From Iphione sp. A-MEVVRFRX5 (taxonomy: Eukaryota): a stretch of 64,000 nucleotides of DNA. The stretch spans positions 58,652,001-58,716,000 of the forward strand of contig OZ320315.1 in assembly GCA_976226885.1 (NCBI GenBank), given 5' to 3'. Of the stretch, positions 4,665 through 46,342 are shown one piece after another (the stretch's first letter is position 1; every line of letters starts with the position of its first letter). Made by a program: the position numbers and the translations under genes. The notes beneath the pieces were generated by a model. The model saw only the letters and a list, made by a program, of their open reading frames with translations, was not told the DNA's origin and did no database searches.

Positions 4665-5216
4665 ATGGCAACCCATCTACTAAAATGTGACTTCTGCAAA
4701 GCCTGGCTTAAGAACGAACGAGCACTTCTTAGACATCTCAATAAATATCATCGTGATGCCAAACAGGGTGACATCAAACGGGGTAAGTACCCGTGTTTCA
4801 TATGCCCATCCACATTCACCCGCCCAAGTACGTTGAAAAGACACTCAATTAAACAACACAATTACCTGCATCCATTACCCAAACCCGTCCTAGGCTACGT
4901 GAGACAACCCATCTACAAAAAACCTCTATGGAGAAACAATACAATCACTCCAGAAAATGTGAAATTTAAAACATTGACATTTGTATCACCTTACAGACGA
5001 CGTCGGGCTCGCAAAGATGATACACTCACCGAGAAAACCAACGATACGCACGATTCCGAAGAACAAGCCACGAAAATCGCCCACACCACCCCCTGTGTCC
5101 ACGACCAAAAGGAAGAAGTCACCAGAACCAGACCAGTTAATGAGCATCACACAAAAGATCAAGAAACAAGAATCCACGTCCAGACAGATTATACAACTGA
5201 GTCCTCAGATGTCTGA
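4665..5216 (+). CDS. C2H2 zinc-finger protein, N-terminal part (183 aa as read)
   Basis: ATG in GTCATGG context. Two C-x2-C-x12-H-x4-H motifs: CDFCKAWLKNERALLRHLNKYH (4686-4751) and CFICPSTFTRPSTLKRHSIKQH (4794-4859). Confidence 0.75.
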   Translation: MATHLLKCDFCKAWLKNERALLRHLNKYHRDAKQGDIKRGKYPCFICPSTFTRPSTLKRHSIKQHNYLHPLPKPVLGYVRQPIYKKPLWRNNTITPENVKFKTLTFVSPYRRRRARKDDTLTEKTNDTHDSEEQATKIAHTTPCVHDQKEEVTRTRPVNEHHTKDQETRIHVQTDYTTESSDV

Positions 5217-5868
5217 TCCAACCGTAAGGAAATCTGGACGCCACCTACACCCATCTGCTACACACCCTAGAAACAAACCGAATTCATCAACATCAACCAA
5301 ACCCCAGCCAGGGGGGGTGAACAAACCGACAAGCCAAGATGGTTCAACCCAACCGACGAAGGACAAGACACTAAGCCCAGTACATCTACCGCCAGTACTG
5401 ACTATAAACCTCGAAGAAGATTTAGAGGTAAGCGACAGTGACGAGAGCAGCACACCGGATGATAGCGACGACTCCAGCAACACGTCTAACTCAGACTCTG
5501 AGGAAGACCCATCCGACGTAGTGACGACCACCCAAACGAATGAAGGGATGGCTGACCCGACTGCTATGGACACCAACAACAGCAACACAACAACGGAAGA
5601 AGACCCCCTGGATACAGATGACGGCAACAAGTCCTACCCTGTAGAAGAATACGTCCCACGCCCAACAGAAGCCAGCAGGACCACCACTGCCACATACAGA
5701 CCCAGTGCCAGACACCTGTCTAATTTTACCACACGTGCCACACATGTACCAGCATCTGAAATTATGTATGATTTGTGGAGAATCGTAGGGAAAATAAACC
5801 AAACGGTTGGTGATGATTTGGCCCGGATACTTGTAAGGGAGGGCCTCATAAGACCATTGAGGCAGTAA
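4981..5868 (+). CDS. Ser/Thr/Pro/acidic low-complexity ORF with a short helical-looking C-terminus; probably the +1-frameshifted continuation of the zinc-finger ORF
   Basis: 295 open codons in AT-rich DNA, overlapping 4665-5216 in the +1 frame. It contains an S/D/E tract (VSDSDESSTPDDSDDSSNTSNSDSEED) and ends IMYDLWRIVGKINQTVGDDLARILVREGLIRPLRQ. It also has its own ATG at 5017. Confidence 0.6.
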   Translation: MYHLTDDVGLAKMIHSPRKPTIRTIPKNKPRKSPTPPPVSTTKRKKSPEPDQLMSITQKIKKQESTSRQIIQLSPQMSDPTVRKSGRHLHPSATHPRNKPNSSTSTKPQPGGVNKPTSQDGSTQPTKDKTLSPVHLPPVLTINLEEDLEVSDSDESSTPDDSDDSSNTSNSDSEEDPSDVVTTTQTNEGMADPTAMDTNNSNTTTEEDPLDTDDGNKSYPVEEYVPRPTEASRTTTATYRPSARHLSNFTTRATHVPASEIMYDLWRIVGKINQTVGDDLARILVREGLIRPLRQ

Positions 5869-12438: not shown

Positions 12439-12714
12439 TGTAGCGTTTCCCGTTACGTAATAAAGACATGACCAAGTATTGAAACAGTAGGGTTTATTCC
12501 TGAGGAACAGCAGTAATGAACAGCACGGTGACCCAGGTCCAACTGACTGGACCCTCCCTGAGTAGCCCCTTATATACCCACCCCTAGGGGGCAGGGGAGG
12601 TGGGGAGTGCAGCACTCCGCACCCCCCCCCCCCGGTGCGTCCTGGTGCCGCACTCCGCATGCAGCACTCAGCACCGGTGGGGCGCCTCCTGGTGCCGCAC
12701 TCCGCAGCACCACA
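12439..12714 (-). repeat. 3' LTR (276 bp)
   Basis: TGTAGCG...CACCACA. Differs from 21783-22054 by one C/T substitution and a C12 versus C8 run. AATAAA on the minus strand at 12493-12498. Confidence 0.98.
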
Positions 12715-12726
12715 CTGCCCCCTCCC
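12715..12726 (-). other. Polypurine tract
   Basis: The minus strand reads GGGAGGGGGCAG immediately before the 3' LTR. Confidence 0.9.
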
Positions 12727-12828: not shown

Positions 12829-14895
12829 CTAGTGGAGGGACACAGTCCACACTTCTTTGAGATTGGCAACCACGCAGTCGCCATCGCGCGCCTGATCCCA
12901 TGTCGTCAGTCTACGCATCGCAGTGCCTCTGGTAAGATTCTCGTACCTCCGAGCGTGCCACCGCATTAGCTCGGCCGAATCTAACTGATCCGACCCGCTC
13001 CGCCTGAATCGGATGCTCTGGTTCAGCGTGAGCTTGACTTGGCGCCCTCCTAATGCCTGGACCTCGGACCGTCCAGAGGCCCGTACGATTTCCCAGCCTG
13101 TGGGCGGTGTTGACTGGCATGAAACAAAGCGCCCCGCGGCCCACACGTAGACCTCCTCAGGCACTCCCGAGTCCTCCGGCGAAGGGGGGGATATGTCCTG
13201 GTAGGACCAGGCCTGGTAGGGGGAGCGCGCGCCTGGCGGTATCCATGGTTGGCCGCCCCCCCGACCCAGGCCTGGCGACGTAACAGGGTGCACGCGTGCA
13301 GTGGGGGAGGCCATCCCCCGTGCCAAATTCGGAAGCGACGCCCGTCTCCGGAGGTGGTGACCTGGAGTCACCCAGCGCTGAGCCGTGTCTTCCGAGGAAC
13401 CGGGACGCAGGGGCCGGTCGAGCAAGGCCTCTACATCCCCGCGGCGGCCTGGGGGTGCAGCTAAGGGCCATCGCAATGGCCCTGCCCCTGGCATGGTTGG
13501 TACTGCTGGTGCCGCCCCCAGTCCTTCCCCGCCACCTCGGGGCGGCGCAAGGGGGGTCTGGACTCCGGTAGGGGCTCCTGGTACTGCCCCCTCCGTGTCC
13601 GCTCCGCCCCTAGGGTCGGGTGGCACGACTTCCTCCGGCCCTACTCCGGCCGGCGTATCCTGAGGCGGTTCCGTTGGTGTGACGACTTCTTCACGCCCCG
13701 TCCCCGGCGTGGTTGGTTGTGCAGGCGGAGTCGTCGCTCTTTGCGTGTCGGACCGGGGAGACACCTGGGGGTCGGGGGTCCCGGTGGGCGCTCCTGGCAC
13801 TGCCTCCCCTGGGCCCGCTCCCCCAGGGCGAACCGTCGGCGACGGTTCTCTCATCCCCCTTCCGGTGGTCCCGGGAGTGGATGGCCCCGCCGGGCCTGCA
13901 GCCACCTCATCGTCATCTGTGGCCGGCTCTCCGGTCGGCGGTGCCTCCCCCGGCGGTGGTGAGCCTGCGGATGAAGGCCGGTCCGGGGAAGCCATCACAT
14001 TCCCCCCTGGGGGTGCCGCTGACAACCCTCCGGTTTCCGAATCGGTATCGCCAGAGGCCTCCAGGGGCTCGTCATCTTCCGCGATTGGGTCCAGTTCACG
14101 AGACGGCTCCTCGGGCACGGTCAGGGTGGGAGTCGCCCCCCCCTGATCCGATGGCACCACGGGTGGGGGGTGGATCAGCGGTCCCAGCCCTCGAGGTTCC
14201 GCTGTTCCCTCTTGACCGGATGCACTGTGCTGAGACAGTCCTGCCAATGTGGCCGCCGCCTCTTCTTCCAAACTGGGGAGCTCGTCCGAGCTTATGTCAT
14301 CCACCCAGAAGGAGGTCCCTAGGGTTTCAGCGAAGACCCTCCTGAGGGGGCTAACCTGGGTGGAGCTCCCTTCTTTAGTGGCTGACCCCGGGGTCGAAGA
14401 AGTGGGTGTGTCGACATTCCTACCGGGTGTGGCTTCCCCCCCTTTGGGGCGGGGCTCGCCCCCGGGTCGTTTCCGCGGCGGCGGGGGAGACTCCCCTGAT
14501 GAGTCGGTGATGACCACCGCCTGGGAGGAAGACGTTTCTTTGGACCAACCAGGTCCCAGGCGGCGGTCCAACTCCTCTTCTGACTCGGTGGCCGAACCCC
14601 GGCCCATCTTGGCTGGTGGTCGCCCGGGTCGCGTTGCTTTGGCCGGAATGGCCTTCCCCTTCCCCTTTCCGGGTGGTCCAGCAGCAGCCTTCCCTTTTCC
14701 TCTCTCGGCTCCGTCTCGACCTTGGTGGCGCACCGCCGCACATCCCCTACCAGGTGAGTACGGGGCATCTGGGGGTTGGGCCGACGGTCCGGGGGAAGTC
14801 TGCGTGGGGGTTCGTCCTGTCCGTTGGCCCGACGGTCCTTCGGCCGACGGTCCTGCGCTTCCGCCCGCTCCGTCGGAGTCCGACTCCGAGTTCAC
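12829..14895 (-). CDS. Long Pro/Gly/Ser/acidic low-complexity ORF with an apparently globular C-terminus, in frame with pol after a single UGA
   Basis: 688 open codons ending about 100 nt before the PPT. It is in the same frame as pol (TGA 14907-14905, then CGG CTA TTC GTG). There is no ATG near its 5' end, and no signal peptide or TM segment was seen. The last about 110 aa (VYVWAAGRFV...EVWTVSLH) are compositionally complex. Confidence 0.7.
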   Translation of the reverse strand: MNSESDSDGAGGSAGPSAEGPSGQRTGRTPTQTSPGPSAQPPDAPYSPGRGCAAVRHQGRDGAERGKGKAAAGPPGKGKGKAIPAKATRPGRPPAKMGRGSATESEEELDRRLGPGWSKETSSSQAVVITDSSGESPPPPRKRPGGEPRPKGGEATPGRNVDTPTSSTPGSATKEGSSTQVSPLRRVFAETLGTSFWVDDISSDELPSLEEEAAATLAGLSQHSASGQEGTAEPRGLGPLIHPPPVVPSDQGGATPTLTVPEEPSRELDPIAEDDEPLEASGDTDSETGGLSAAPPGGNVMASPDRPSSAGSPPPGEAPPTGEPATDDDEVAAGPAGPSTPGTTGRGMREPSPTVRPGGAGPGEAVPGAPTGTPDPQVSPRSDTQRATTPPAQPTTPGTGREEVVTPTEPPQDTPAGVGPEEVVPPDPRGGADTEGAVPGAPTGVQTPLAPPRGGGEGLGAAPAVPTMPGAGPLRWPLAAPPGRRGDVEALLDRPLRPGSSEDTAQRWVTPGHHLRRRASLPNLARGMASPTARVHPVTSPGLGRGGGQPWIPPGARSPYQAWSYQDISPPSPEDSGVPEEVYVWAAGRFVSCQSTPPTGWEIVRASGRSEVQALGGRQVKLTLNQSIRFRRSGSDQLDSAELMRWHARRYENLTRGTAMRRLTTWDQARDGDCVVANLKEVWTVSLH

Positions 14896-14904
14896 GAATA
14901 GCCG

Positions 14905-15729
14905 TCAGCCCTTGTACTCCTGAGGGGCCGGCAAGTTGATGCCTTTCGGGGTCGGAATCAAGGGGAGGGTCCGGGCGCACGTAGTTGATCCCGTCGACCG
15001 CGCTTTCGGGGCCCTGGCGTACGTACGCGGCCTCATCCTGTCTGGGGAGGATGCGGACCCCCCACTGGTCCCTGCTGGGTTGCTCGAAGAGGGCCCGGCC
15101 TCGGAGGCCGAACTGCGGGGCGGCTGGGAAGGCCTCTCCGTCTCCGATGGGGACTCTGCTGACCCCGCCGAGGTGGACGTGGGGGGGCCCTTACTGCCAG
15201 CGGAGCCGCCGGGGGTCGCTGGGGCGGTACGGTCTGTACCCAGTCGACGGCGCGCCCGGCGGGCTGGTCGTCGTGGCGGTCGGGCAGGAACCTCCTCTCC
15301 GGGTTCCGCCTCGTCATCCGAAGAGTCCACCACTTCGGCGCGGAGATCCTTCGTACGGGCTGTAGCCTCTCGCTGGCGCCGCCGGGCTAGGTCAGCCTGC
15401 AGGTCCGCGGGACAGTCCATCGCGACCCCGCGGGTAGGATTGAACCCCGAGAAACGAATGAATTGCACGTCGACCGTCTGGGTCATCTGGAGTGACCCAT
15501 GCACTCCCAGGAGGTGCCTCTTCCAGTCCGTCCGGCGCCGGAAAGCAGTACATTTGCACTCCAGCACCGGGCAAATCCAGCCAAACCCCTTGGGGCAATG
15601 AACTTGCTCCATGTGGCGGCGCAGGTTTTGCCGCTGCTGGAAACCTGTATCACACAGGTGGCACGAGAACGGGGCTGGTGGTGGGGGGGTCGCTCCTGGC
15701 GCGGGTCGGGGTCGTCCTCCTTCTGCCAT
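14905..15729 (-). CDS. Putative separately expressed accessory protein (274 aa; 966 aa with UGA readthrough) with two C2H2 zinc fingers
   Basis: ATG in GTAATGG context at 15729, 11 nt after a strong splice acceptor. CHLCDTGFQQRQNLRRHMEQVH (15663-15598) and CPVLECKCTAFRRRTDWKRHLLGVH (15573-15499). Basic patch PARRARRR. It is in frame with and inside the pol ORF. Confidence 0.65.
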   Translation of the reverse strand: MAEGGRPRPAPGATPPPPAPFSCHLCDTGFQQRQNLRRHMEQVHCPKGFGWICPVLECKCTAFRRRTDWKRHLLGVHGSLQMTQTVDVQFIRFSGFNPTRGVAMDCPADLQADLARRRQREATARTKDLRAEVVDSSDDEAEPGEEVPARPPRRPARRARRRLGTDRTAPATPGGSAGSKGPPTSTSAGSAESPSETERPSQPPRSSASEAGPSSSNPAGTSGGSASSPDRMRPRTYARAPKARSTGSTTCARTLPLIPTPKGINLPAPQEYKG

Positions 15730-18700
15730 TACGCCTGGGCCTAGGAGAGAAAAGGACGAGTTAGACACAACCTCCGATACGCTTGTCATGCGGGTCGCAT
15801 TCCGTTTCAAAGTCCGCAGCGGCCCCACGCCCCCCGCCGCAGTGGCGTGAGGCGGTTGTCCACCCTGCGGCGTACTCAAACTCCGCTGCGGCCTTTCGTG
15901 CGGCCCACTCGACCTATTACCGCTATGCACACAGTGCGGCGTAGTCGTACTCTGCTGCGGCCTTCCATGCGGCCCGCTCGACCTATTACCGTTATTCACG
16001 CAGTGCGGCGTAATCGAACTCTGCTGCGGTCTATAAGGTTTGTTATGTTTACACACCCTCCGCGGCGGCCTAATGCTCACTGATACATCCTGCGGCTTTT
16101 GCTGAATAATTCGTACAACGTGGGTGCCGCTCCTGAACTGTCGCGGACCAACAAGATAAGATGCGGCCCTTTCCTCCCGATTATCGCTCAGCTGCGGAGA
16201 CAAACAGTTCAAATGGACCTGGCTTACCTCGTCTGTGGCAGTTTCGGGCTGAACAGGAGATTCCAAGGTGGTGTTCTCGACGTTAGGGCACAGAGGCAGA
16301 TGGGAGATCGAGTTGACAACGATCTTTTGTGGCGAAAACGGCTCGTGGGGAGATCGGGGGTGCTCGCTTCGGTTGCTAGAGACGCTGCGGGGAACGCGCG
16401 TTGTCGACGTGGCGCCCTCTATGGGAACCGGACGGCTAAACTCCGCAGCGGCCTGTCCGGACTCCGCCCCGCGCTCTGGCGTGGTGCCCCCTGGCGTTTC
16501 ATCTTGCGCTCTGTGCTCGGGCTCTGCAGCAACTCTTGGGCCACCGGGTGACTCCGCAGCGGCCTTCCGGGGGTGTCCTGCCGCTGCGACGGTGACGTCC
16601 CCCAACGCGGGTTTCAATCGATCAGCGTGCACCACTTTCCTGCGCGCACCTCTCCCGATGCGATAGACCACTGCTGACAGCCGATCCTCCACACGCCATG
16701 GCCCTTCCCACCAGCTCTGGAATTTGGGGGACACTCCTTTCTTCCTCAGGGGAGTGAAGAGCCACACACTCTGCCCTACCACGTACTCCTGGGGCCTCAC
16801 TTTTTGGTTGTACCAGTCTTGTCGCAATTCGGCCGCTCGATTCAGCTTGCAAGCCACGCGCTGGTGAGCCTCCCGAACTTCCTCCTCCACCTGGCACGCG
16901 TAGTCTCCTCTCTCTACTGCCGGTTTTTCCGGGTGCCCGTAACGTAATTCCGCTGGCGTGGCCACTTCACGGTACAGGGTCAGCCAATTGGGGGACATGC
17001 CAGTGGTACTGTGGGGGGTGGCCCTGTATGCGGCCATCACGAAGGGCAGCGCTAAGTCCCAATCCGCTTGCCTCTCTTCCCCTAGTGTGGCCAACATGTT
17101 GGCAAGTGTCCTGTTAAAGCGTTCCACCACCCCGTCTGCTTGGGGGTGGTACGGTGTGGTCCTTGATTTTTCAATCCCCAATAACCGCAGCACCTCCCTG
17201 AAGAGCTCGGCCTCGAAGTTCCGCCCTTGGTCGGAATGCAAGGCCCGAGGAGGTCCAAACCGACACACAATTTCCTTGACAATTACCTCAGCAGTCGCTT
17301 GGGCAGTGACTTCAACCAAGGGGAAGGCTTCTGTCCATTTGGAAAAATGGTCCGCCACCACCAGTATGTAGCGGTGTCCCCGCTCAGTCCGCGGAAGCGG
17401 TCCTAGGACATCCGCTGCCACTAGCTCCCACGGTTCGCTCACTTTCCGGTACTGTAGTGGGGCTCGCTTGTTGCGGGGCGGTCCTTTCCGGCGTTGGCAT
17501 GCCTGACACGCTTGTGTCCAGCGCAGAACATCGCGCCGAAGTCCAGGCCAAAACCACTTGGTCTTCAGTGCAGCCCCCGTCTTCTCTGCCCCGAGGTGGC
17601 CACCCAGTGCCCCTTCGTGGGCTTCCAGCCATATCTGCTTCCGCAGGCTCCTTGGGACGTAGGCCTGGTACACCGGTCGCGACGGCTCCTCCTCCCAGCA
17701 CCGCATGAGTACCCCACGTCTGAGGCTCAGCCGCCTGGCTTCGGCACGTAGTTGGCGCTCCTCCCATGACAACCCGGGCTCCAACCCTGGGGGTTCTCTT
17801 CCCTCTTCAAGGGCATCCATGATAGCCGCCACCGACTCTTCCTCCCGCTGGGCTTCGCGCAACTGCGGCTGGTCCTCCGCCGGCGCGAGTGTCACCATGG
17901 CTGCCCACTCCTGCGCTGGCTCCTCTTCTCCCTCCACCCGATGGCACTGCTTACAGCGCTGGCGGGAGAGCCCATCAGCGTTGCCGTGCTTCTTTCCGGG
18001 CCGATGGACGATCAGCAGGTCATGGCAGAAGATTTCTTCTAGCCACCGGGCCAACTGTCCCTGAGGCTCCCGGAAATTGCACAGCCATCGCAGGGAGTCG
18101 TGGTCGGTCCGTATCTCGACCGTACGCCCTCCCACATAGCAACGGAACTTCCGTAACGCGAAGACTACGGCTAATAATTCCCGCCGGGTGATGCAGTAGT
18201 TCCTTTCTGGTCGCGTGAGTGTCCTACTGGCATACACCAAGACCCTTTCCTGCCCCTCCTGTTCCTGAGAGAGCACTGCACCCACGCCCGTGTCGGAAGC
18301 GTCAGTATCCAGTAAGAGGCGTCCCTGCGGCTTTGGGAACCCCAGGATGGGTGCCGACATGAGCCGCCTCTTGAGCTCCTCGAACGCCAACTGACATTGG
18401 TCCGACCACGCGAACTCAGCGTGCCGGTCGGCCAATGCATGCAACGGTGCTGCAATCCTGGCAAATCCTTCTACAAAATTCCGATAGTAGGAGCAGAGGC
18501 CCAAAAACCCTCGCAGTTCCTCCTGGCAGCGAGGCAACGGCCACTCGGCTACTGCCGCCACTTTGGCCGGGTCCACCCCTACTCCTGCTGCGGACACCCT
18601 GTGCCCCAGGTAGGCCACCTCTCGTCGGAACAGTTGACACTTTGAGGCTTTTACGTGTAGTCCTGCCTGCTGCAACCGTTGCAGCACCGATCTTAAGCGC

Positions 18701-20073
18701 TGGCACATTTGCCGCACCGAGTCCCCAAGAACGATGACATCATCCAGATAGACGAGGCACTCCACCCCGATGAGCCCTCGCAGTACTGATTCCATCAGTC
18801 TCTCGAAAGTGGAAGGAGCGTTGCAGAGCCCGAAGGGCATAACCTTGAACTGGTATAGCCCCCTGGGCGTGCACACCGCGGTCTTCTCTGCATCCTGGGG
18901 GTCCATGCGGACCTGCCAGTATCCACTGGCCAGGTCGAGGGCCGAGAAGAACCGACTCCCCTGGAGGGCGTCCAAGGTGTCGTCAATTCGGGGGATGGGA
19001 TAGGCGTCCTTTTTGGTGACCAAGTTCAGCCGTCGGTAATCCACACAGAACCGGGTACCACCGTCCTTCTTTTTCACCAGTACTAAGGGGGAGGCCCATG
19101 GGCTGGTGGAGGGTTCGAGGACTCCCCGCTCCACCATGGAGTCTACTTCCCGCTCCAGCTCCGCCCTCTTCTGCGGAGGAAGGCGTCGCACCCGTTGACG
19201 GATGGGGGGGTGCCCTTGCGTGTCGATTTGGTGCTGCACATCAGGGGTACATCCGAGCGGCCCGCTGGGGGTCTGGAACACCCCCTTGTACTCTTCCAGC
19301 AAGGTGTGTACCATTCGCCGTTCCTCAGCCGACAGGTCGTCCGGAAGGCTTTCCAGCAGCAGCCCCACTGCCTCGGCCTGTTCCTCCTCGATCACTGAAC
19401 TGGCTCCGACCTGGGCGGGGTTCACGTCCTCTACCGGGTGAGCCCACCCCACGTGGGTTCCCCCATGGATGTATGCCTCCTGCGACCCCGGGTTCCACAC
19501 CGGTACCAGCAGCTTCCGTTCGGCTGGGCGCACCACCGCATGCGCCACCCGAAGCCCCGACCGTTCCTCGAACCGCTGGTTGCCCTCGGTCAGAACTCCT
19601 TCTGGCTCCCCCAGCGTTGGTGCCCAAGTGGCTGTCACCCATCCTAGCTGCCCTGCGGCGATGCGATGGTCCCCTCGGGCTGCCAACAGCACCGCTCCGT
19701 CCCCCACGGGCGCGCCCAAGGTCACTTGTGCTCGTAGAGTGTCGACCGTTGCCTCCCACGCGTCCAACCAGTCAAGCCCCAGGATGGCCGGTACTTCCAT
19801 GTCGACTACCCTTGCCCTCACGGGCACCCGGGTGTCACCGAATTGGACTTGACTGGCCACCGTTCCCCTTACTACCAGGGGAGCCCCGTCTACGCCGAAC
19901 ACCCTGGCGTCGACAGGCCCCAGGGTAATGCCTCGCAGGTTGTCAAAGACCCGGCTTGATAGTAGAGAAGCAGATGCCCCGGTATCCACCAGCCAATCGA
20001 AGGTGCAGCCCCCCATCCTTCCGGACAGGAGAAGTCCGCTGCACCCTTGTCGTCGGTGCCCTTGCAGGACCAA
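14905..20073 (-). CDS. pol: Pol polyprotein (protease, RT, RNase H, integrase) with a C-terminal extension of about 560 aa; the frame is open back to the frameshift site at about 20200
   Basis: LVDTGA (DTG at 19986-19978), YLDD (18750-18739), TDAS (18306-18295), HHCC zinc motif (HEGALGGH...CQAC), and DDE triad DVLGP (about 17410), SDQG (about 17230), VERFN (about 17120). GPY/F-like WEGPW...VVHADRLKP ends at about 16610. No internal stops. Confidence 0.97.
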   Translation of the reverse strand: MVLQGHRRQGCSGLLLSGRMGGCTFDWLVDTGASASLLSSRVFDNLRGITLGPVDARVFGVDGAPLVVRGTVASQVQFGDTRVPVRARVVDMEVPAILGLDWLDAWEATVDTLRAQVTLGAPVGDGAVLLAARGDHRIAAGQLGWVTATWAPTLGEPEGVLTEGNQRFEERSGLRVAHAVVRPAERKLLVPVWNPGSQEAYIHGGTHVGWAHPVEDVNPAQVGASSVIEEEQAEAVGLLLESLPDDLSAEERRMVHTLLEEYKGVFQTPSGPLGCTPDVQHQIDTQGHPPIRQRVRRLPPQKRAELEREVDSMVERGVLEPSTSPWASPLVLVKKKDGGTRFCVDYRRLNLVTKKDAYPIPRIDDTLDALQGSRFFSALDLASGYWQVRMDPQDAEKTAVCTPRGLYQFKVMPFGLCNAPSTFERLMESVLRGLIGVECLVYLDDVIVLGDSVRQMCQRLRSVLQRLQQAGLHVKASKCQLFRREVAYLGHRVSAAGVGVDPAKVAAVAEWPLPRCQEELRGFLGLCSYYRNFVEGFARIAAPLHALADRHAEFAWSDQCQLAFEELKRRLMSAPILGFPKPQGRLLLDTDASDTGVGAVLSQEQEGQERVLVYASRTLTRPERNYCITRRELLAVVFALRKFRCYVGGRTVEIRTDHDSLRWLCNFREPQGQLARWLEEIFCHDLLIVHRPGKKHGNADGLSRQRCKQCHRVEGEEEPAQEWAAMVTLAPAEDQPQLREAQREEESVAAIMDALEEGREPPGLEPGLSWEERQLRAEARRLSLRRGVLMRCWEEEPSRPVYQAYVPRSLRKQIWLEAHEGALGGHLGAEKTGAALKTKWFWPGLRRDVLRWTQACQACQRRKGPPRNKRAPLQYRKVSEPWELVAADVLGPLPRTERGHRYILVVADHFSKWTEAFPLVEVTAQATAEVIVKEIVCRFGPPRALHSDQGRNFEAELFREVLRLLGIEKSRTTPYHPQADGVVERFNRTLANMLATLGEERQADWDLALPFVMAAYRATPHSTTGMSPNWLTLYREVATPAELRYGHPEKPAVERGDYACQVEEEVREAHQRVACKLNRAAELRQDWYNQKVRPQEYVVGQSVWLFTPLRKKGVSPKFQSWWEGPWRVEDRLSAVVYRIGRGARRKVVHADRLKPALGDVTVAAAGHPRKAAAESPGGPRVAAEPEHRAQDETPGGTTPERGAESGQAAAEFSRPVPIEGATSTTRVPRSVSSNRSEHPRSPHEPFSPQKIVVNSISHLPLCPNVENTTLESPVQPETATDEVSQVHLNCLSPQLSDNREERAASYLVGPRQFRSGTHVVRIIQQKPQDVSVSIRPPRRVCKHNKPYRPQQSSITPHCVNNGNRSSGPHGRPQQSTTTPHCVHSGNRSSGPHERPQRSLSTPQGGQPPHATAAGGVGPLRTLKRNATRMTSVSEVVSNSSFSLLGPGVMAEGGRPRPAPGATPPPPAPFSCHLCDTGFQQRQNLRRHMEQVHCPKGFGWICPVLECKCTAFRRRTDWKRHLLGVHGSLQMTQTVDVQFIRFSGFNPTRGVAMDCPADLQADLARRRQREATARTKDLRAEVVDSSDDEAEPGEEVPARPPRRPARRARRRLGTDRTAPATPGGSAGSKGPPTSTSAGSAESPSETERPSQPPRSSASEAGPSSSNPAGTSGGSASSPDRMRPRTYARAPKARSTGSTTCARTLPLIPTPKGINLPAPQEYKG
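15741..15764 (-). promoter_or_regulatory. Putative branch point, polypyrimidine tract and 3' splice acceptor
   Basis: The minus strand reads CTAAC-TCGTCCTTTTCTCTCC-TAG|GCCCAGGCGTA-ATG. The branch A (15761) is 20 nt from the acceptor (15741), in otherwise GC-rich coding DNA. Confidence 0.65.
15870..16029 (-). repeat. 69-bp (23-aa) tandem repeat, about 2.3 copies, in the post-integrase linker
   Basis: RPQQSSITPHCVNNGNRSSGPHG / RPQQSTTTPHCVHSGNRSSGPHE / RPQRS. Confidence 0.85.
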
Positions 20074-20161
20074 TCCCCCGGTGGTGGCTCCCGCCAGGGC
20101 TCTGAGATGTTCGGGCAGAGGCGAACCGTCGTGGCCCGGGTCTGCCGCAACTGGTGACTCT

Positions 20162-20205
20162 ACCGCCCGCCCCTCTAGGCTCGGGCGGGCGGTCCCCCGT
20201 TTCCC
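20162..20205 (-). promoter_or_regulatory. -1 programmed ribosomal frameshift signal (gag to pol)
   Basis: Slippery G GGA AAC in the gag frame (20205-20199), a 5-nt spacer, then a perfect 11-bp stem ACCGCCCGCCC/GGGCGGGCGGT with a 10-nt loop containing the gag TAG. The -1 frame reads openly into LVLQGHRRQG...DTG. Confidence 0.9.
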
Positions 20206-21020
20206 GGCTCCGGGGCGGGGGCAGCGGTAGGGGCAGAACCAGAGGCTGTGGCATTAGCCTCTGCTGCTTGGCGGGCTGGGCACTCCCGCTTGAAGTGTCC
20301 GGGTTCGTGGCAGTAGAAACAGGCCCCCTCTGGAGCCCGACGGCGGCCCCGGCGGCTGGGAGTGGCCGGAGGCTGTTCCACCAACTTGAGCAGCAACTGC
20401 TCCACGCGCTCCCACGCCGGCGGGGCTGAGGCTGGCGCAGAGCGATTCGCGGCTACCGATTCTCCCTCCTCGGTGCGCGCGGCATGGACACGAGTGGTTG
20501 AGCCCGTCCCGGAGCGTTCCTTCTTGGCACGGTGGAAGGATTCGGCCAGTAACGCTTCGGACACCACCGACTGGAACGAGCGGGCCTTCGCTTGGACCAC
20601 CCAGCGACGGCTCCGCTCCTCCCTTAGTGCCGACACGAAGGCGTCCCGGCACATGCGGTCCAGCCAGGGTCCTTCTGCTTCCGGGTACGCCTGTCGCACC
20701 AAACGCTCAATGTCCTCCGCGAGCTTCTGGGCGTCCTCGTCCTTTCCCTGCCGCCTCTGCTTGAGTTCCTGCTCGTAGAAGGTGGCGCGGTCGGCCGACT
20801 GGAAACGATTCTTTAAGGCGTCCACGATCCGATCATACGCGCCTTCGGCTGCCACATCGATCCCAGCGGTACGAAGCGCCGACTGCGCCGACCTGCGCAA
20901 GCAGACGCTCAGTTGCAGGGCCTGCTCGGTCCGGTCCCAGCGGTTGGCCCGGGCTACCAGTCCGAAATGGTGTAGGTACTCGGCGAGGGGTACCGACCCA
21001 TCAAAGGTTTCGGGCTTCAC
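20175..21020 (-). CDS. gag: Gag core (capsid-like region and CCHC nucleocapsid knuckle)
   Basis: KPETFDG...EYLHHFGLVARANRW retrotransposon gag-like start and CFYCHEPGHFKREC (20321-20280). This frame has a stop at 21095-21093 and no ATG of its own. Confidence 0.92.
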   Translation of the reverse strand: MKPETFDGSVPLAEYLHHFGLVARANRWDRTEQALQLSVCLRRSAQSALRTAGIDVAAEGAYDRIVDALKNRFQSADRATFYEQELKQRRQGKDEDAQKLAEDIERLVRQAYPEAEGPWLDRMCRDAFVSALREERSRRWVVQAKARSFQSVVSEALLAESFHRAKKERSGTGSTTRVHAARTEEGESVAANRSAPASAPPAWERVEQLLLKLVEQPPATPSRRGRRRAPEGACFYCHEPGHFKRECPARQAAEANATASGSAPTAAPAPEPGNGGPPARA

Positions 21021-21657
21021 ATGGAAACGCCGTGCAGGGGTCGTAGCCGCGGGGGGTTGCCATCGACTGCAGGGCCTCCTGGAGGCCTGAAACTAAGCCC
21101 CGCACCAACTGTCCCCGGTCGTCCTCCCCCTCGGTCCTCGCAGAACTCGGCAAGGTCGTCACGGACCTAGGGCTGCTGTTAGCACTACCATCCGGTTCTG
21201 AACCGGCACCAGGCTCAGCCCGACGCGGTGGTGTAGCGGGTGGCTGGACAGTATCCCGAGCGCCCCTGGGTTGTCTGGCCGACGGTTGTGCTGCCTGCGG
21301 CTGTGTGGCCCCTGGGCCTTGGGGCGCGGCAGGCGGCTGCGCGGCGTTCTCCAGCTGCACGCCCTGCGGCTGGGCGTCTGGTGGCGGCACCCCCCTTGGT
21401 GAAGCGCCCCTGGGTTGTTCGGCCGGCGGTGGTGCTGCTTGCGGCTGGGCCGCCTGCGGTGGGGCCGTCCCTCGGCCCTGTGGTACGGCGTGCGGCTGCG
21501 CTGCATGCGGCTGTGATGCTGCACGCGGCTGTGGTGCTGCATGCGGCTGTGGTGCTGCATGCGGCTGCGCTGCTGCATGCGGCTGTGGTGCTGCATGCGG
21601 CTGTGGTGCTGCATGCGGCGTGCGGCCCAACTGGACTTCATCATCAGAACTCGACAT
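21001..21657 (-). CDS. gag: Pro/Gln/Ala-rich ORF; probable Gag N-terminus separated from the core by a one-base frameshift
   Basis: MSSSDDEVQLG..., about 7 copies of an 18-bp PQPHAA repeat (about 21490-21625). Removing one C from the C6 run at 21051-21056 gives ...LQSMATPAATTPARRFHVKPETFDG. Confidence 0.7.
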   Translation of the reverse strand: MSSSDDEVQLGRTPHAAPQPHAAPQPHAAAQPHAAPQPHAAPQPRAASQPHAAQPHAVPQGRGTAPPQAAQPQAAPPPAEQPRGASPRGVPPPDAQPQGVQLENAAQPPAAPQGPGATQPQAAQPSARQPRGARDTVQPPATPPRRAEPGAGSEPDGSANSSPRSVTTLPSSARTEGEDDRGQLVRGLVSGLQEALQSMATPRGYDPCTAFPCEARNL

Positions 21658-21763
21658 GCTGTCCCACTGGTCCGACTCCCCGGATACTTCCGGTGCGCCG
21701 GCCGGCCAGCGTCGGCGTCCTCTCCCCAACGACTGTCCCCGGCCATGTCCTGCGGTGGGCGAG

Positions 21764-21781
21764 ATCCCACCGCTGCCACCA
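21764..21781 (-). other. Primer-binding site complementary to the tRNA-Leu 3' end
   Basis: Minus strand TGGTGGCAGCGGTGGGAT, 1 nt after the 5' LTR. Its complement ATCCCACCGCTGCCACCA matches, from memory, the 3' end plus CCA of metazoan tRNA-Leu(AAG/TAG). Confidence 0.88.
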
Positions 21782-21782
21782 A

Positions 21783-22054
21783 TGTAGCGTTTCCCGTTAC
21801 GTAATAAAGACATGACCAAGTATTGAAACAGTAGGGTTTATTCCTGAGGAACAGCAGTAATGAACAGCACGGTGACCCAGGTCCAACTGACTGGATCCTC
21901 CCTGAGTAGCCCCTTATATACCCACCCCTAGGGGGCAGGGGAGGTGGGGAGTGCAGCACTCCGCACCCCCCCCGGTGCGTCCTGGTGCCGCACTCCGCAT
22001 GCAGCACTCAGCACCGGTGGGGCGCCTCCTGGTGCCGCACTCCGCAGCACCACA
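21783..22054 (-). repeat. 5' LTR (272 bp)
   Basis: TG...CA termini. On the minus strand TATATAA (21920-21914) lies upstream of AATAAA (21842-21837). Internal repeats GGTGCCGCACTCCGCA occur twice. Confidence 0.98.
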
Positions 22055-31205: not shown

Positions 31206-33202
31206 TAGATATCAAAGCATACCCAAAACCACTGATTTATATTTACTTTTAAGTCTCCTGGACAAAAACATCCTGCTGCACGCTGCATAAACTACAAGAG
31301 TGTGCTTGTGAGTGTGTATACATTGTGGAGAAGTGTAAAGAGGGGGGGCAGGTGATAGTAGCATATCGTACCACTTGTGTAATTAAATAGGTTTGGCCCT
31401 GATGCTACAATTGATCCGTCGCCTATAATCTGAGCGGCAGCACTTTGTCACCATCCTGCCGAGAAGACTACCTCAAGGTCACCTAAGGAGGTCAATTTCT
31501 ACCGGCAGTATTGACTGCATTATGCCAGGTGTGTCCGGGCTTGGCTAGTAAACATGCCGGCACATGGAGAGGAGGTGGGGTAAGTAATCTGTCAGCTAGT
31601 GCACGTCTCTATGCTCGTCACATTACTAACACCTGCCTACTATTGAACAAATAAAAGGATATCTTGATGGAATGACGCTAGTGAAACTTCGCTCGAGAGC
31701 TGGTATGACTTATAGAGAGCCCTTATTAAAAAAACGGGTAATTGTCACGTGCATGCCACTTATAACAGAGAAGAGAAACCTAGCAGTCGGGCGAAACACG
31801 AATTTAGAAGCGAGAGACACGGCTCATAAACAAGACTCATTGCATGTTTTAGACCATGGCATCTACTTGCTTGGTATGCCCGTTTTCATTATATCTGAGA
31901 AATTTTGCGCGTAGGGCACATACTATTATAGTGTTCTATTTGATCTCTCCAGGAGAAAATGGAAAGAGCTACTAATTATCATTAATTACAGGAACCATGA
32001 GTTTTTTCCTTTTAATAAAGCACGCTGCTAACACGCAATCCTAATGGAATCGATTTGGTTGAAAGGAAATATTCGTGATAGGTGACCATGTGGAGAAACC
32101 AGGATCATAACGCAAAAGGAGTAAAAGAGAAATATTAGAGAGCCACTCTGTGTTTAGATGCCTGCTCGGCATGCATATCTATCCACAGGAGTCGCTGATG
32201 AAGCGTTTGAATTTCCCATGGGACTTGGAGGGATATGTTTATTCACCGAATACTCTCATCCATGGTCGCCATCGGCACGCCCGTGACAGTCGTCCCCAGC
32301 TGGCAAACGCCGTACGCATGGCCTATGATCCGCACCATAGAAAAATAATGTGCAGTTTTTCATGAGCTGAAACATGAAAAAAGGCTCCCAGACATATGTC
32401 CGATTAAAACGATACATCCCCGTGAGAAATACTGTTTTTGACAATAAGTTCCTGTTTGTCGTCCGTGCGTTACCGAGCAGGTTCCTACCTGGCTGTCAAG
32501 TTTGGTGACTGAGCGGTATACATGTATATTACGCAACTAATATAGAACATCCACATGTAATATAAGTGAGGGATATATAGCAAGTTAGGTGTTGTACATG
32601 ATAAATACAGTCGAATTTCGCTATGCCACCGTGCCTAAAAATGACCAAAACAGCCAAACTAGTTCAGAACGAACGCCTTTGTTAACCTATGAAGTATAAT
32701 ACTACAATGCGGCCAGACTGTAAAGTGACCAAACCGCCTGCAATCACATGTCTTAGAGTCATATCGATACAATATTAATATCACAAAGTAGGCAGAGTTC
32801 TTGACACATAGTGTGATCGCAGAGGTCCTTGCTCAAATTGTTTGCTCAAAAAGCTTTTGAAAGGATTTCCATTGTCTAAGGTGTGCGGACCTATAAAGGT
32901 GTTCTTTGCCAGTGTTAGGCCAGCTTTCCATGCATGTGGGGATTGTCTCCGGAGTCCGGACTGCGTGGCGTGGAAATTAATGATTCTATGACTCTCTACA
33001 TGACTCTTTCCATGCATGCGGGTGTGTGGTGCATGGTGAGTGGTGCAGAGAAGTGCGTGCCCAAAAAACAAACCTGGGCCATAAAATTCTCTGGATACGC
33101 ACACCCATGCACCAGTAGGATACGGAGATGGAGGTTTTCAGCTGGATACACAATGTGTATCACATGGTAGATGTTGTGAATTATTTCCTAATTTGCATAA
33201 AA

Positions 33203-33375
33203 ACCTCCATGAAAAACCACACAATTTCCACCAATATGCTTCAACTTCCATGAAAAACTGCACATTTTCCACCAATATGCTTCAACCTCCATGAAAAACT
33301 GCATACTTTCCACCAATATGCTTCAACCTCCATGAAAAACCACATAATTTCCACAAATATGCTTTGACCTCCATG
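33203..33375 (+). repeat. Minisatellite, 41-bp unit, about 4 copies
   Basis: CCATGAAAAACYRCAYAHTTTCCACCAATATGCTTCAACCT repeated. Confidence 0.9.
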
Positions 33376-33409
33376 CATACATATATACATACATACATGT
33401 ACAATGTAC

Positions 33410-43300: not shown

Positions 43301-46076
43301 GGTATGGTGGACACTGGCACACTAATGGTCAGGATTTAAACGAATCTAACACTGTCCGATTGCTTCTTTGTTAGCTAAGATCAAGACATCGGTATTGTTC
43401 ATCGTTACTTTTCGATTTCGTGTAATTTCCTGTCAGATTACATGTAATAAAATAGTATAAAACGAAAATATTAGTATCAAGCACGTATGCCACTGGTGGA
43501 CAGCACTGAACTCTGAATTTTGATGGATATGGAAAATGTACTTTCAAAACCTATCCTAAGTAGCAGGAGACATTAAGGAAGCATAAAGCATACCCCTTAG
43601 TCACTACCAGCACAGGCACCTATCCTCGTCTGAAACTTCGGAAAGCCCTAGCCATCAAACGAGATCATATAGAGGAGCACAGAGGGCCCAAGATGAAATC
43701 AATTATTCATCGTTGGTGACAGCCTGGGTCAGCAAGGGGAGCTCGCCGCCCAGACGATGGGCCGACTTATCATTCGCCGCCAGGTCCCGCTGATCGCCTT
43801 GCTGAACGGGACGATCGGACATTGCCGATCCACCTTAATGAAGCCAGGGACTGGCTCTGCTTCAGGCCAGTTCTGCAAGAAGGATTTCTTGAGCGCTGGA
43901 AGAAAAATTGGCAGGAATAATGTCTTCGCTCACACTGAAAATAGTGAAGGATGCGTCGAGGGGAGGAACTTTAAATAATCTCTGTTGAAAGAGTTTTACA
44001 ATGCGTGTTGTTTAGCCCATTGAGGCCTGGACTGTATATGAGATAATGTCAATACAGGGCAAGGGTATCTAACTAAACAGCCTCCTAGAGGGCGAGGATA
44101 TTATATAATGATACTATTCCAATATACATATAACGTACATAAAAGATTATGAATTTCTGTCTTTTTCAGGGGAAATCAGATCATTATCAGTGCTTAAAAT
44201 TCTTCCTTTATGGTAAAAGTTACGAAAACTCCAGAAATCCTAAAAGCATATACCTTGATCCGGTGCCTCAAGGCATCATTCGCCCTTTACATAGGAATGC
44301 TTTCAGGCATCATCAGGTTTTAGCCTGGGAATGCCTTCAGGTATCATCCGCCCTTATAGGGCTAAAGGCCGTATTAATCATTGGACTCCATTATGCTGGA
44401 AATATATTGCATAATAGTAATGATCATGCGTTCATATATTTGATACCAAACAAACATAACATATCTATCTTTAAGACATGTCGAAAATGATAGCCATCTC
44501 ACTTCCTGTGACGCAATGCCCGTATTGGTATTTTCTAGACGGGCAATATAGAGACATTGCACAGAAGCGGGCACACGAGACATTAGAATGAAACAGAGAA
44601 ATATCCCTCATTGCAAGAGACCCATGTAGACTTCTGCTTTTAAATCTATGACTTTGATTCGAAAATGATGTCAAAAGAAGTCGGCATAATATAAATATGA
44701 GCCCCGGCATTCCCTGACTATTAAACCTATAAAAGAGAACAGTGTACATAGAAAGTAAAGAACTTGGCATTTCAGGGCTGCGCTTTTGCTTGCGAACTAT
44801 TTCCTGTAGTGAATATTTGATGATGCCGTGCGATAGCAGTTCAGTAAGCCCTGTTAAAATAGGTTGGACTGTAGGTGGGACAAACTGGGCACGGTTCAAG
44901 CGTGCTTAAGAACATATAGCCTTGCCCTGTTGGGCTGATGCCATCCGCTGCAGGTGTGTCTATGGGTGAAAGGGAGGTAGGCGGTGTCTGTGCAATCCAT
45001 CCAGGTGTGCCGAGAGCGCAACAAACCTGTGGTTCACCTTTCATCAGCCGCCCTTTCATCCGTCACACAAAGACCGAAGCCAAATAAATTCATTGCCATG
45101 TTCCAAATCAAACTTCCAGTCCCCTGTTGCGGGAATAACACCGCTTGGATACTTGTATGTTGTGAACTTGGCGTTCCGTACAAATATTCCACATGTACAG
45201 GTGAGTTAGTCTACCACAGAAGTGTACATGTACACTTATTCGAGCTCAATTGTTTAATCAATTTCATCACAGGTGAGATACTTGGAAACAGTGCACAACG
45301 GACGCATCTGGTGCAGAACATAGCTTCATTTAGTAAAAGTTCACGTATTCCCTTTGTAGGCAAAACACCGCTTCACTCGAGCTGACGTTGTCGGGGCATC
45401 ATTAATAAATGTTAGCCAATTAACGCTGACGTCAGAGATCGGAGTGCATTGTATATCCGCCAGCCAAGTCCAAGGCATGCCCTCCGTCCTCACCATGCCA
45501 TGTAGCCACACATTAGGTTTACACAGTGATGAAAATATTATTTGTACTTTGTTCAAAGAGTTGTCACCCAAAAGCTCTAGTAACTGTTAAAAGTTTTGGC
45601 AGATTCGCATGTGACAGCAGTTGGCTCATTTATACTGAAACATCCTACAGGCTATCCTTATCCGTAGAAAGTTGTCAGAAAAGAAACCATTCCTGGGTGT
45701 TGGCATTATAGATTGGTTCTCTGGCAATCACTGAAGGGATTCATCCACCGATTATAATTATCCATCTCCTCCACTGACCAGGTGCCACAACCGAATGAAC
45801 CGAAACACGATGTCTAATCACTAGTGGCCGATTTCTCATTCAGTGACAGACTGACTGAGGGCGTCTGCAAGGTGCCTATCTTGTGAGATGTGTTGACCAT
45901 TCCACCATCTTATCAGTTGGGGTGAGCCTGCTATCTTGGTGATATAGAGATGGTTTATTCATTGTCATCTAGGGATAGATAAGATCTGGAATCCTGAGAT
46001 AGGGTCAGAGGAGTCTTGGGACTAGTATTGACCACATATTTCCACAAAATTCTGCCATTTATTATCATTTCCCCAT

Positions 46077-46342
46077 CATTTACCAGTGTTTATACTTTTT
46101 CCAGTGAAAATTGCCAGTTTTATACTTTTTGCCAGTCAAATTTACCAGTTTTTATATTTTCTTTAGTGACATTCACCAGTTTTTATACTTTTTCCAGTGA
46201 AATTCAACAGTTTTTATACTTTTTCCAGTGACATTTACCAGTTTTTATACTTTTTCCAGTGGCATTCACCAGTTTTTATACTTTTTCCAGTGACATTCAC
46301 CAGTTTTGATACTTTTCCAGTCCCATTTACCAGCTTTTATAC
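46077..46342 (+). repeat. T-rich minisatellite, 31-bp unit, about 8.5 copies
   Basis: CATTCACCAGTTTTTATACTTTTTCCAGTGA repeated with variants. Confidence 0.92.

Follow-up and report, generated by a model that had tools for sequence, protein, structure and literature searches.

The window analysed here, 64,000 nucleotides (64 kb) of contig OZ320315.1 from the Iphione sp. A-MEVVRFRX5 assembly GCA_976226885.1, holds on its minus strand a complete and young long terminal repeat (LTR) element of the Ty3/Gypsy type, about 9.6 kb in length, in which the position of an envelope gene (env) is occupied by a third gene, ORF3. An earlier note on this DNA had read this gene as encoding a zinc-finger protein instead of an envelope, and ORF3 is indeed a real and strongly selected zinc-finger gene. 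We propose, with a probability of roughly 0.55, that its product is a free self-regulator, made from a spliced transcript that would start at an internal promoter, and acting through TGCGG repeats in the LTR and in the linker between integrase and ORF3, in the manner of Tas of foamy viruses or of VANC of plant VANDAL elements.

Organization of the element and its relatives in the genome

The two LTRs of the element are 98.2% identical, the target-site duplication is 4 bp, and both a primer-binding site (PBS) and a polypurine tract (PPT) are present (Table 1). A Pfam scan places gag before pol and gives the pol domains in the order protease (PR), reverse transcriptase (RT), RNase H (RH) and integrase (IN), by which the element is assigned to Ty3/Gypsy. 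A single stop-free frame from 20253 to 14908 on the minus strand, 1782 amino acids (aa) long, runs through PR, RT, RH and IN and on into the fingers, and the pol frame crosses a linker of about 880 nucleotides (nt) into the 966 codons of ORF3. Past the stop at 14907–14905 the same frame resumes for 691 aa to 12829 and ends 102 nt short of the PPT, in agreement with the earlier description of a frame with one stop that ends about 100 nt before the PPT. This stop is private to the window copy, its position being read as a sense codon in 12 of the 13 copies matched by script, and programmed read-through was ruled out for that reason.

A DNA similarity search gave 48 candidates, 40 of which were scored; its 47 matches fall at 40 places, one of them that of the window element, and protein searches with the finger module and with the C-terminal domain of ORF3 gave at least 150 matches each. 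The compared set comprised 70 elements, namely the window element, the 39 other places from the DNA search and 30 further elements chosen preferentially for long frames; the PBS, integrase-end and finger markers were present in 57 of these, to which the counts below refer, and the other 13 were left out of the comparisons. LTR pairs are mostly 94–100% identical (about 85% in two old copies), which argues that many of the insertions are recent. In an RT tree (FastTree, midpoint root; 16 sequences of our own and 88 of 120 public ones) about seven families of this genome form one clade with support of 0.999: A–E, the clade of the window element, then F, G, H, I/J and K, with I/J nested as sister to the window's clade (support 0.98). 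The frame is single from the protease to the C-terminal domain in 7 of 34 close copies with usable end markers (2366–2447 aa), and in distant families it reaches 2742 aa.

Internal deletions occur among the copies. In L015:654-1922 (minus strand) the finger module and the C-terminal domain are joined in one 423-aa frame, and two further internally deleted copies, L039 and L059 (5.1 and 5.8 kb), have lost gag and most of pol and retain the linker and ORF3 region; in L039 the deletion breakpoint falls within the PBS and does not correspond to splicing. In L135, L137, L159 and L161 the RT is nearly identical between I and J and the C-terminal domains differ by about 24%, so recombination between 5' and 3' halves is possible.

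ORF3 is a selected zinc-finger gene

Selection was estimated as the ratio of nonsynonymous to synonymous divergence (dN/dS; Nei–Gojobori) for seven pairs from ten unbroken copies. The ratio is 0.03–0.07 for integrase, 0.04–0.08 for the finger block, 0.044–0.051 for the C-terminal block, 0.09–0.42 for the disordered parts and 0.59–0.84 for the linker; between subfamilies synonymous divergence is close to saturated, no value was obtained for some pairs, and the two unsaturated pairs concur (fingers 0.056 and 0.076, linker 0.76 and 0.59). By these ratios the finger module and the C-terminal domain are under a constraint comparable to that on integrase, the linker evolves almost neutrally, and the amino-acid constraint begins right at the ORF3 ATG.

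The two C2H2 (Cys2His2) fingers described in the earlier note have all eight Cys and His ligands invariant in 35 of 35 aligned copies, and ligands, ββα fold and PDB sequence matches are all those of C2H2 proteins. Finger 1 scores 23.1 bits on PF00096, below the cut-off of 25.2, and finger 2 is left unscored by this profile. An Arg-rich helix follows the fingers in the predicted structure. No env family appears in the Pfam scan and ORF3 lacks the signal peptide and membrane anchor that characterize an errantivirus glycoprotein; the earlier observation of no signal peptide or transmembrane helix holds and extends to the absence of any hydrophobic segment (best 19-residue Kyte–Doolittle mean 0.68 in the window ORF3 and 1.15 over the 31 unbroken ORF3s). 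Its statement that furin sites are absent is not strictly correct, as two R-x-R-R strings occur, which are meaningless without a signal peptide. No chromodomain family was found by the Pfam scan at E ≤ 1, and the element does not classify as a chromovirus.

Word-indexed searches with the finger region and with the C-terminal profile gave no homologue, and phmmer against 1.84 billion representatives gave 430 matches at E ≤ 0.001, among the 150 listed of which the best stretch was always the finger region; blanks in these searches are weak evidence, because P0246, a public relative described below, is itself absent from the listed matches. ESM Atlas returned generic C2H2 clusters for the finger query and no usable match for the C-terminal domain, for which Pfam and PDB sequence searches were likewise blank, Foldseek gave nothing at E ≤ 0.001, and no relation to the tails of P0246 or P0190 was detectable. 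The best fold-search match of this domain, at Z 8.2 (root-mean-square deviation 3.4, 101 aligned), was to phage tail-terminator proteins; homology to these was not accepted, a Z of 8.2 being within the range of common arrangements. The C-terminal domain is a novel one, of no known family.

Splice sites and the predicted intron

The acceptor lies where the earlier note had put it, in the pol frame 870 nt beyond the end of integrase, which we placed at 16611. A CTAAC, a pyrimidine tract and a TAG precede the exon start at 15740, and the ATG follows 11 nt on, at 15729, also as had been described. By a score that we wrote ourselves after the window site had been seen, this acceptor is top-ranked in 35 of 37 scored copies, among about 570–750 AG sites per copy (341 in one deleted copy; 3 of 40 copies had no finger match), though its sequence varies between subfamilies. 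The donor, which the earlier note had been unable to identify, is GAG/GTAAG inside the linker, 487 nt upstream of the acceptor; it is first of 345 GT sites in the window copy and ranks 1–3 of about 340 in all 32 copies of the window's clade.

Donor, acceptor and ORF3 ATG are conserved; for the acceptor, the ATG and the fingers, conservation in relatives was among the checks that the earlier note had proposed. The donor reads AG/GTRRG in 56 of 57 copies and is in phase 0 in 56 of 57, and the acceptor is in phase 1 in 54 of 57. In 54 of 57, too, the first ATG downstream of the acceptor opens the reading frame of the fingers. In eight distant representatives this ATG stands 62–371 nt past the acceptor, and their exon-2 leader, 1999 nt in total, is free of ATG. 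Introns measure 169–538 nt across copies. From these features we infer that the intron is spliced. No middle exon and no acceptor at a fixed position were found upstream of the linker donor.

A motif, (A/G)GCGATA, is exact in 54 of 57 copies, 23–41 nt into the intron, and shows no synonymous variation. The codon before it (window 16191–16181, minus strand), which in every case belongs to the pol frame, is CTG, TTG, ATG, GTG or ACG in 56 of 57 copies and is possibly the start of a longer isoform from unspliced internal RNA, or may merely belong to a DNA motif.

The linker as a candidate promoter region

As the intron starts about 300–570 nt behind integrase (984–1221 nt in family H), a first exon is required. 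In the 150 nt above the donor one ATG occurs in 2100 nt (14 representatives), as against 4.5–14 per kb in other regions. A TATA box is found 187–211 nt above the donor in 5 of 5 K-family copies analysed, and a TATA-like string stands at that place in one other copy only. A GAGGGCGCC-type motif, defined as a pattern after the data had been inspected and taken by us to resemble the CTCF core, lies 160–270 nt above the donor in 38 of 57 copies, the background being 0.007 per such stretch. The linker holds a conserved cis-regulatory module where the encoded protein is nearly unconstrained; it probably contains an internal promoter, from which transcription would start about 150–200 nt upstream of the donor. 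The ratio of CpG to non-CpG transitions, which is confounded by selection, is 1.4 in the linker, 1.7 in ORF3 and 2.3 in pol.

TGCGG repeats and the finger helices

The top word common to U3 and linker in an unbiased k-mer comparison is CCGCA/TGCGG. TGCGG exceeds expectation in the U3 of 12 of 14 representatives and is near background in pol, and its excess in the linker, on both strands and in all phases, holds under synonymous-codon resampling in 10 of the 12 representatives outside I/J. In the window copy the intron also carries a tandem duplication of 69 nt (15861–15998), by which the motif is multiplied. U3 contains two or more TGCGG in 52 of 52 copies with an N3-type finger-1 helix and none in 5 of 5 I/J copies, whose finger-1 helix is without N3 and R6. 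I/J linkers show TGCGT instead, with 6–12 sites as against 0–3 (resampling 0/300 and 10/300). Because I/J are nested among families that keep both the helix and the motif, the two changes are derived and fall on the same branch. The finger-2 helix is nearly invariant, with R(-1), D(3) and R(6) kept, and by the zinc-finger recognition code would read GCG, the core of both TGCGG and TGCGT; the code predicts GCG-GAA. It is likely that the ORF3 fingers bind the TGCGG repeats in the linker and LTR.

Proposed regulatory circuit

In the scheme that we favour, a promoter in the linker between integrase and fingers would start a transcript some 150–200 nt above the donor, and removal of the linker intron (16228 joined to 15740) would give an ORF3 mRNA from which free ORF3 would be translated, beginning at the ATG at 15729. 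The protein would be nuclear and would bind DNA at the TGCGG repeats of the linker and LTR. Binding would raise expression of the element, either by direct activation, as with Tas, or by countering silencing, as with VANC, which binds motif arrays; sequence cannot separate these two modes. Unspliced RNA would additionally yield Pol-fused ORF3. To the wider proposition, that a Gypsy lineage has evolved its own circuit in the style of complex retroviruses, with internal promoter and intron in the pol frame, a C2H2 factor, co-evolution of helix and motif, and an integrase-fused form too, we would give somewhat less than even odds.

A number of points weigh against this scheme. The family to which the window element belongs has no TATA box in its linker. 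We built the donor and acceptor scores by hand from what is generally known of splice sites; where the automatic pick failed, in 10 of 57 copies (F and K), we chose the sites by visual inspection; and K-family acceptors score low (14.5–15). The segment joining the fingers is of G(F/L)GW type and not of the canonical TGEKP type, and a fold search with the two-finger model gave no structural match above Z 3.5. Linkers of K (L119) and F2 are not enriched in TGCGG after codon control (171/300 and 39/300), and the I/J U3 has one TGCGT, no more than family A, so that the U3 side shows loss only. The code fits just the GCGG core: the commonest extension is GCGGAG in A–E and GCGGC- in G despite the same three helix residues, and family G thereby departs from it. 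The change of helix and motif is a single contrast, being one evolutionary event, and the copies are related, so that counts are not independent. Finally, a host factor binding TGCGG would account equally well for the enrichment.

Alternative explanations

The alternative that survives best, though we regard it as unlikely, is that the Pol-ORF3 polyprotein is the working form, its fingers tethering integrase or targeting it to chromatin, much as the chromodomain does in chromoviruses, with the splice sites tuning the amount of fusion. That ORF3 can also be read as a fusion to integrase had been pointed out in the earlier note and is supported: the linker is in frame in 53 of 57 copies and stop-free in 50 of 57 (27 of the 32 copies found by DNA similarity, the distant copies having been picked for long frames), with 3 stops in the pol frame as against 517 and 755 in the other two. 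Within the intron, a peptide of 12 residues is conserved at the protein level among F, H and K, with 6–9 synonymous versus 0–3 amino-acid differences. Given the open linker and this peptide, unspliced RNA is probably translated through the intron, and since linker and intron are both open in the pol frame it would yield a Pol-ORF3 polyprotein of about 2400–2740 aa, which may either be functional as such or merely avoid a long untranslated tail. Public relatives retain the in-frame fusion as well, as described in the next paragraph. A tether would have no need of the conserved ATG, the ATG-free leader or the acceptor, and would not explain a constraint that starts at the ATG; moreover the motif arrays sit in the element and not at target sites.

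Among the best 120 of 4418 public Pol relatives with E ≤ 1e-100 (8000 scored), seven have C2H2-like fingers in frame behind integrase. P0246 and P0190 (about 2315 aa, ENA records) share the plan of a long linker, a Met, two fingers and a disordered tail; the fingers of P0246 align to the family profile of the window element with a probability of 96%, and both proteins fall with the families of this genome in a clade (support 0.994) that includes four relatives without a recorded finger tail. The other five (P0219, P0243, P0244, P0256 and P0257) carry a short tail in frame behind integrase, with a Met and C2H2-like fingers, and the four of them that were placed in the tree fall in a separate Gypsy clade. 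In these short-tail proteins the residues before the Met resemble a translated pyrimidine tract plus AG. The terminal finger pair of P0256 and P0257 we take to resemble the dimerization fingers of Ikaros and Hunchback.

Next, and again unlikely, ORF3 could be an RNA-binding regulator like HIV Rev or CERV of Cer1, made from the spliced RNA and promoting export or intron retention of the full-length RNA. The genomic RNA has to retain a strong intron, the near-invariant intronic motif is on one strand, an Arg-rich helix follows the fingers, and CERV itself is an accessory protein of the nucleus, made from spliced RNA, whose exons share the polyprotein frame (PMC10309623). The occurrence of TGCGG on both strands, in all phases and in U3 upstream of the TATA box fits DNA binding instead, and finger 2 keeps its base-reading residues.

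We consider it improbable that the intron is removed from the full-length RNA, where the resulting frameshift would end Pol after the integrase tail and so switch between plain Pol and Pol-ORF3, free ORF3 arising by re-initiation. Such a switch would suit the intron length of 3n+1 in nearly all copies and the stop of the shifted frame over the ORF3 ATG in the window's clade (offsets -2 or +1 in 30 of 32 copies). In distant families, however, the stop falls 164–350 nt before or 214 nt after the ATG, so the coupling is not general, and termination–reinitiation as a general route was ruled out by these positions. Spliced full-length RNA could, furthermore, be reverse-copied into DNA, yet no intron-less copy was seen among the 70 elements, and a search with the exon-2 start gave 36 places, all already in the set.

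The splicing that the earlier note had assumed, from a donor in the 5' LTR leader across gag-pol to the acceptor, giving an env-type subgenomic RNA, was not supported and is quite improbable. It is the route of errantivirus env and of Tor3a env (PMC12992720, PMC4276936, PMC4402516), and the gag ATG in U5 would be in frame via a weak U5 GT site. That site is GC or absent in several copies, the sole shared 5' GT is weak and lies inside the PBS, and in 15 representatives the stretch from the LTR start site to 400 nt beyond the PBS yielded no strong conserved donor, in a scan that non-canonical donors, such as that of Tor3a (PMC4402516), would escape; the top-ranked donor is the one in the linker.

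That ORF3 is a captured host fragment in neutral decay, the outcome against which the earlier note had cautioned, can be dismissed: the window copy has its one stop and ORF3 is broken in 26 of 57 copies, but 31 of 57 are unbroken, the gene is kept across families at 43–58% identity, and a dN/dS of about 0.05 between families, in the finger and C-terminal blocks, refutes it.

Other features of the element and the window

Table 1. Features of the Gypsy element, in window coordinates (Inr, initiator; pLDDT, predicted local distance difference test score)
Feature	Position	Strand	Remarks
5' LTR	21783..22054	-	TATA 21920, Inr-like 21890, poly(A) signal 21842; 5 TGCGG repeats in U3
Primer-binding site	21765..21782	-	
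gag	20175..21813	-	begins at ATG within U5; in two frames in window copy
pol: protease, RT, RNase H, integrase with p58-C domain	16611..20253	-	Pfam scan
Linker	15730..16610	-	no break in the pol frame; 17 TGCGG sites; encoded protein evolves almost neutrally; candidate region for an internal promoter
GAGGGCGCC-type motif, fixed position	16410..16421	-	about 190 nt upstream of donor
Predicted intron, 487 nt	15741..16227	-	donor GAG/GTAAG at 16228/16227, branch point 15764-15760, acceptor TAG 15743-15741
Intronic motif (A/G)GCGATA, near-invariant	16181..16190	-	
ORF3, 966 codons	12829..15729	-	finger module; conserved islands within a long disordered region; C-terminal domain
Two C2H2 fingers, hairpin and basic helix	15331..15675	-	predicted structure, pLDDT 89
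Stop codon, private to window copy	14905..14907	-	
C-terminal alpha/beta domain, conserved, no known family	12832..13209	-	predicted structure, pLDDT 85
Polypurine tract	12715..12726	-	
3' LTR	12439..12714	-	

The PBS is presumably of tRNA-Leu type. With the gag ATG inside U5 (21813–21765, minus strand), reading crosses the LTR end and the PBS; the N-terminal gag peptide is preserved in 38 of 38 copies, and the ATG is at the same place in distant families. RNA folding at the gag-pol overlap is no better than that of shuffled sequences (z -0.3). The flanking DNA contains tandem arrays, of 41-nt units at 33161–33406 and of 31-nt units at 46047–46347, and an open frame of 296 codons at 4978–5868 on the plus strand has no Pfam match.

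Comparison with known systems

LTR retrotransposons are generally held to need transcription factors supplied by the host, and the best-known role of C2H2 proteins is that of host repressors of transposons. If the proposed circuit is real, a C2H2 regulator encoded by a retrotransposon would turn this view round and have its counterpart in the Tas circuit of foamy viruses. Within this one genome, about seven families that differ in finger helices and in LTR motifs offer a natural test, giving specific predictions for binding and reporter assays. Gene, inferred promoter and predicted intron would all lie in one open pol frame, which ordinary annotation would log as a long Pol. In the literature covered we found no account of a Gypsy element whose pol continues in frame into a C2H2 ORF3, though subscription journals, Repbase entries and supplements, which lay outside it, could contain one, and term look-ups in the consulted text of PMC6238403, PMC8556966, PMC5408684, PMC13524379, PMC13228809 and PMC6431247 gave no such gene.

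The element is a Gypsy element and not an errantivirus. Errantivirus env is likewise a third gene between pol and the 3' LTR reached via a splice acceptor, spliced from 5' donors (PMC12992720, PMC4276936), whereas ORF3 has no signal peptide or membrane anchor, lies in the pol frame without a stop, and has its predicted donor behind integrase rather than near gag. Oikopleura Tor3b and Tor4b also possess a third gene, the internal promoter of which lies within pol or immediately behind it, but that gene encodes a membrane glycoprotein and its transcripts are unspliced (PMC4402516). In bdelloid LTR elements the ORF3 slot again holds non-envelope cargo; this consists of esterase, exonuclease or membrane proteins in separate frames, and the text searched has no match for 'zinc' (PMC5408684). 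VANC21 of VANDAL21 is comparable as an element-encoded factor acting on its own element, and the motif here contains a CpG (PMC8616336); VANDAL21 is, however, a plant DNA transposon whose protein is unrelated to ORF3, and an anti-silencing role here would be by analogy.

Among retrotransposons, the closest precedent for an accessory protein that is both spliced and in frame is CERV of Cer1 in C. elegans, a Gypsy-type element in which the exons of the accessory protein lie largely in the polyprotein frame. CERV differs in that it shares gag exons, has a Cys-loop domain and exports RNA (PMC10309623), whereas in the window element the predicted intron is wholly behind integrase and the fingers are classical C2H2 fingers. 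A conserved 5' donor or a middle exon was not seen in the scan of 15 representatives, which non-canonical donors would escape. In its mode of action the window element would most resemble the foamy viruses, which have an internal promoter and the Tas regulator (PMC12789967). As in those viruses, a regulatory gene is placed at the 3' end, here with predicted expression from an internal promoter, and candidate response elements are shared by the LTR and the predicted internal promoter (PMC12789967). The element is nonetheless not a member of that group: it has a Gypsy Pol and no env, its regulator is a C2H2 protein in the pol frame, and no sequence similarity to Tas was seen.

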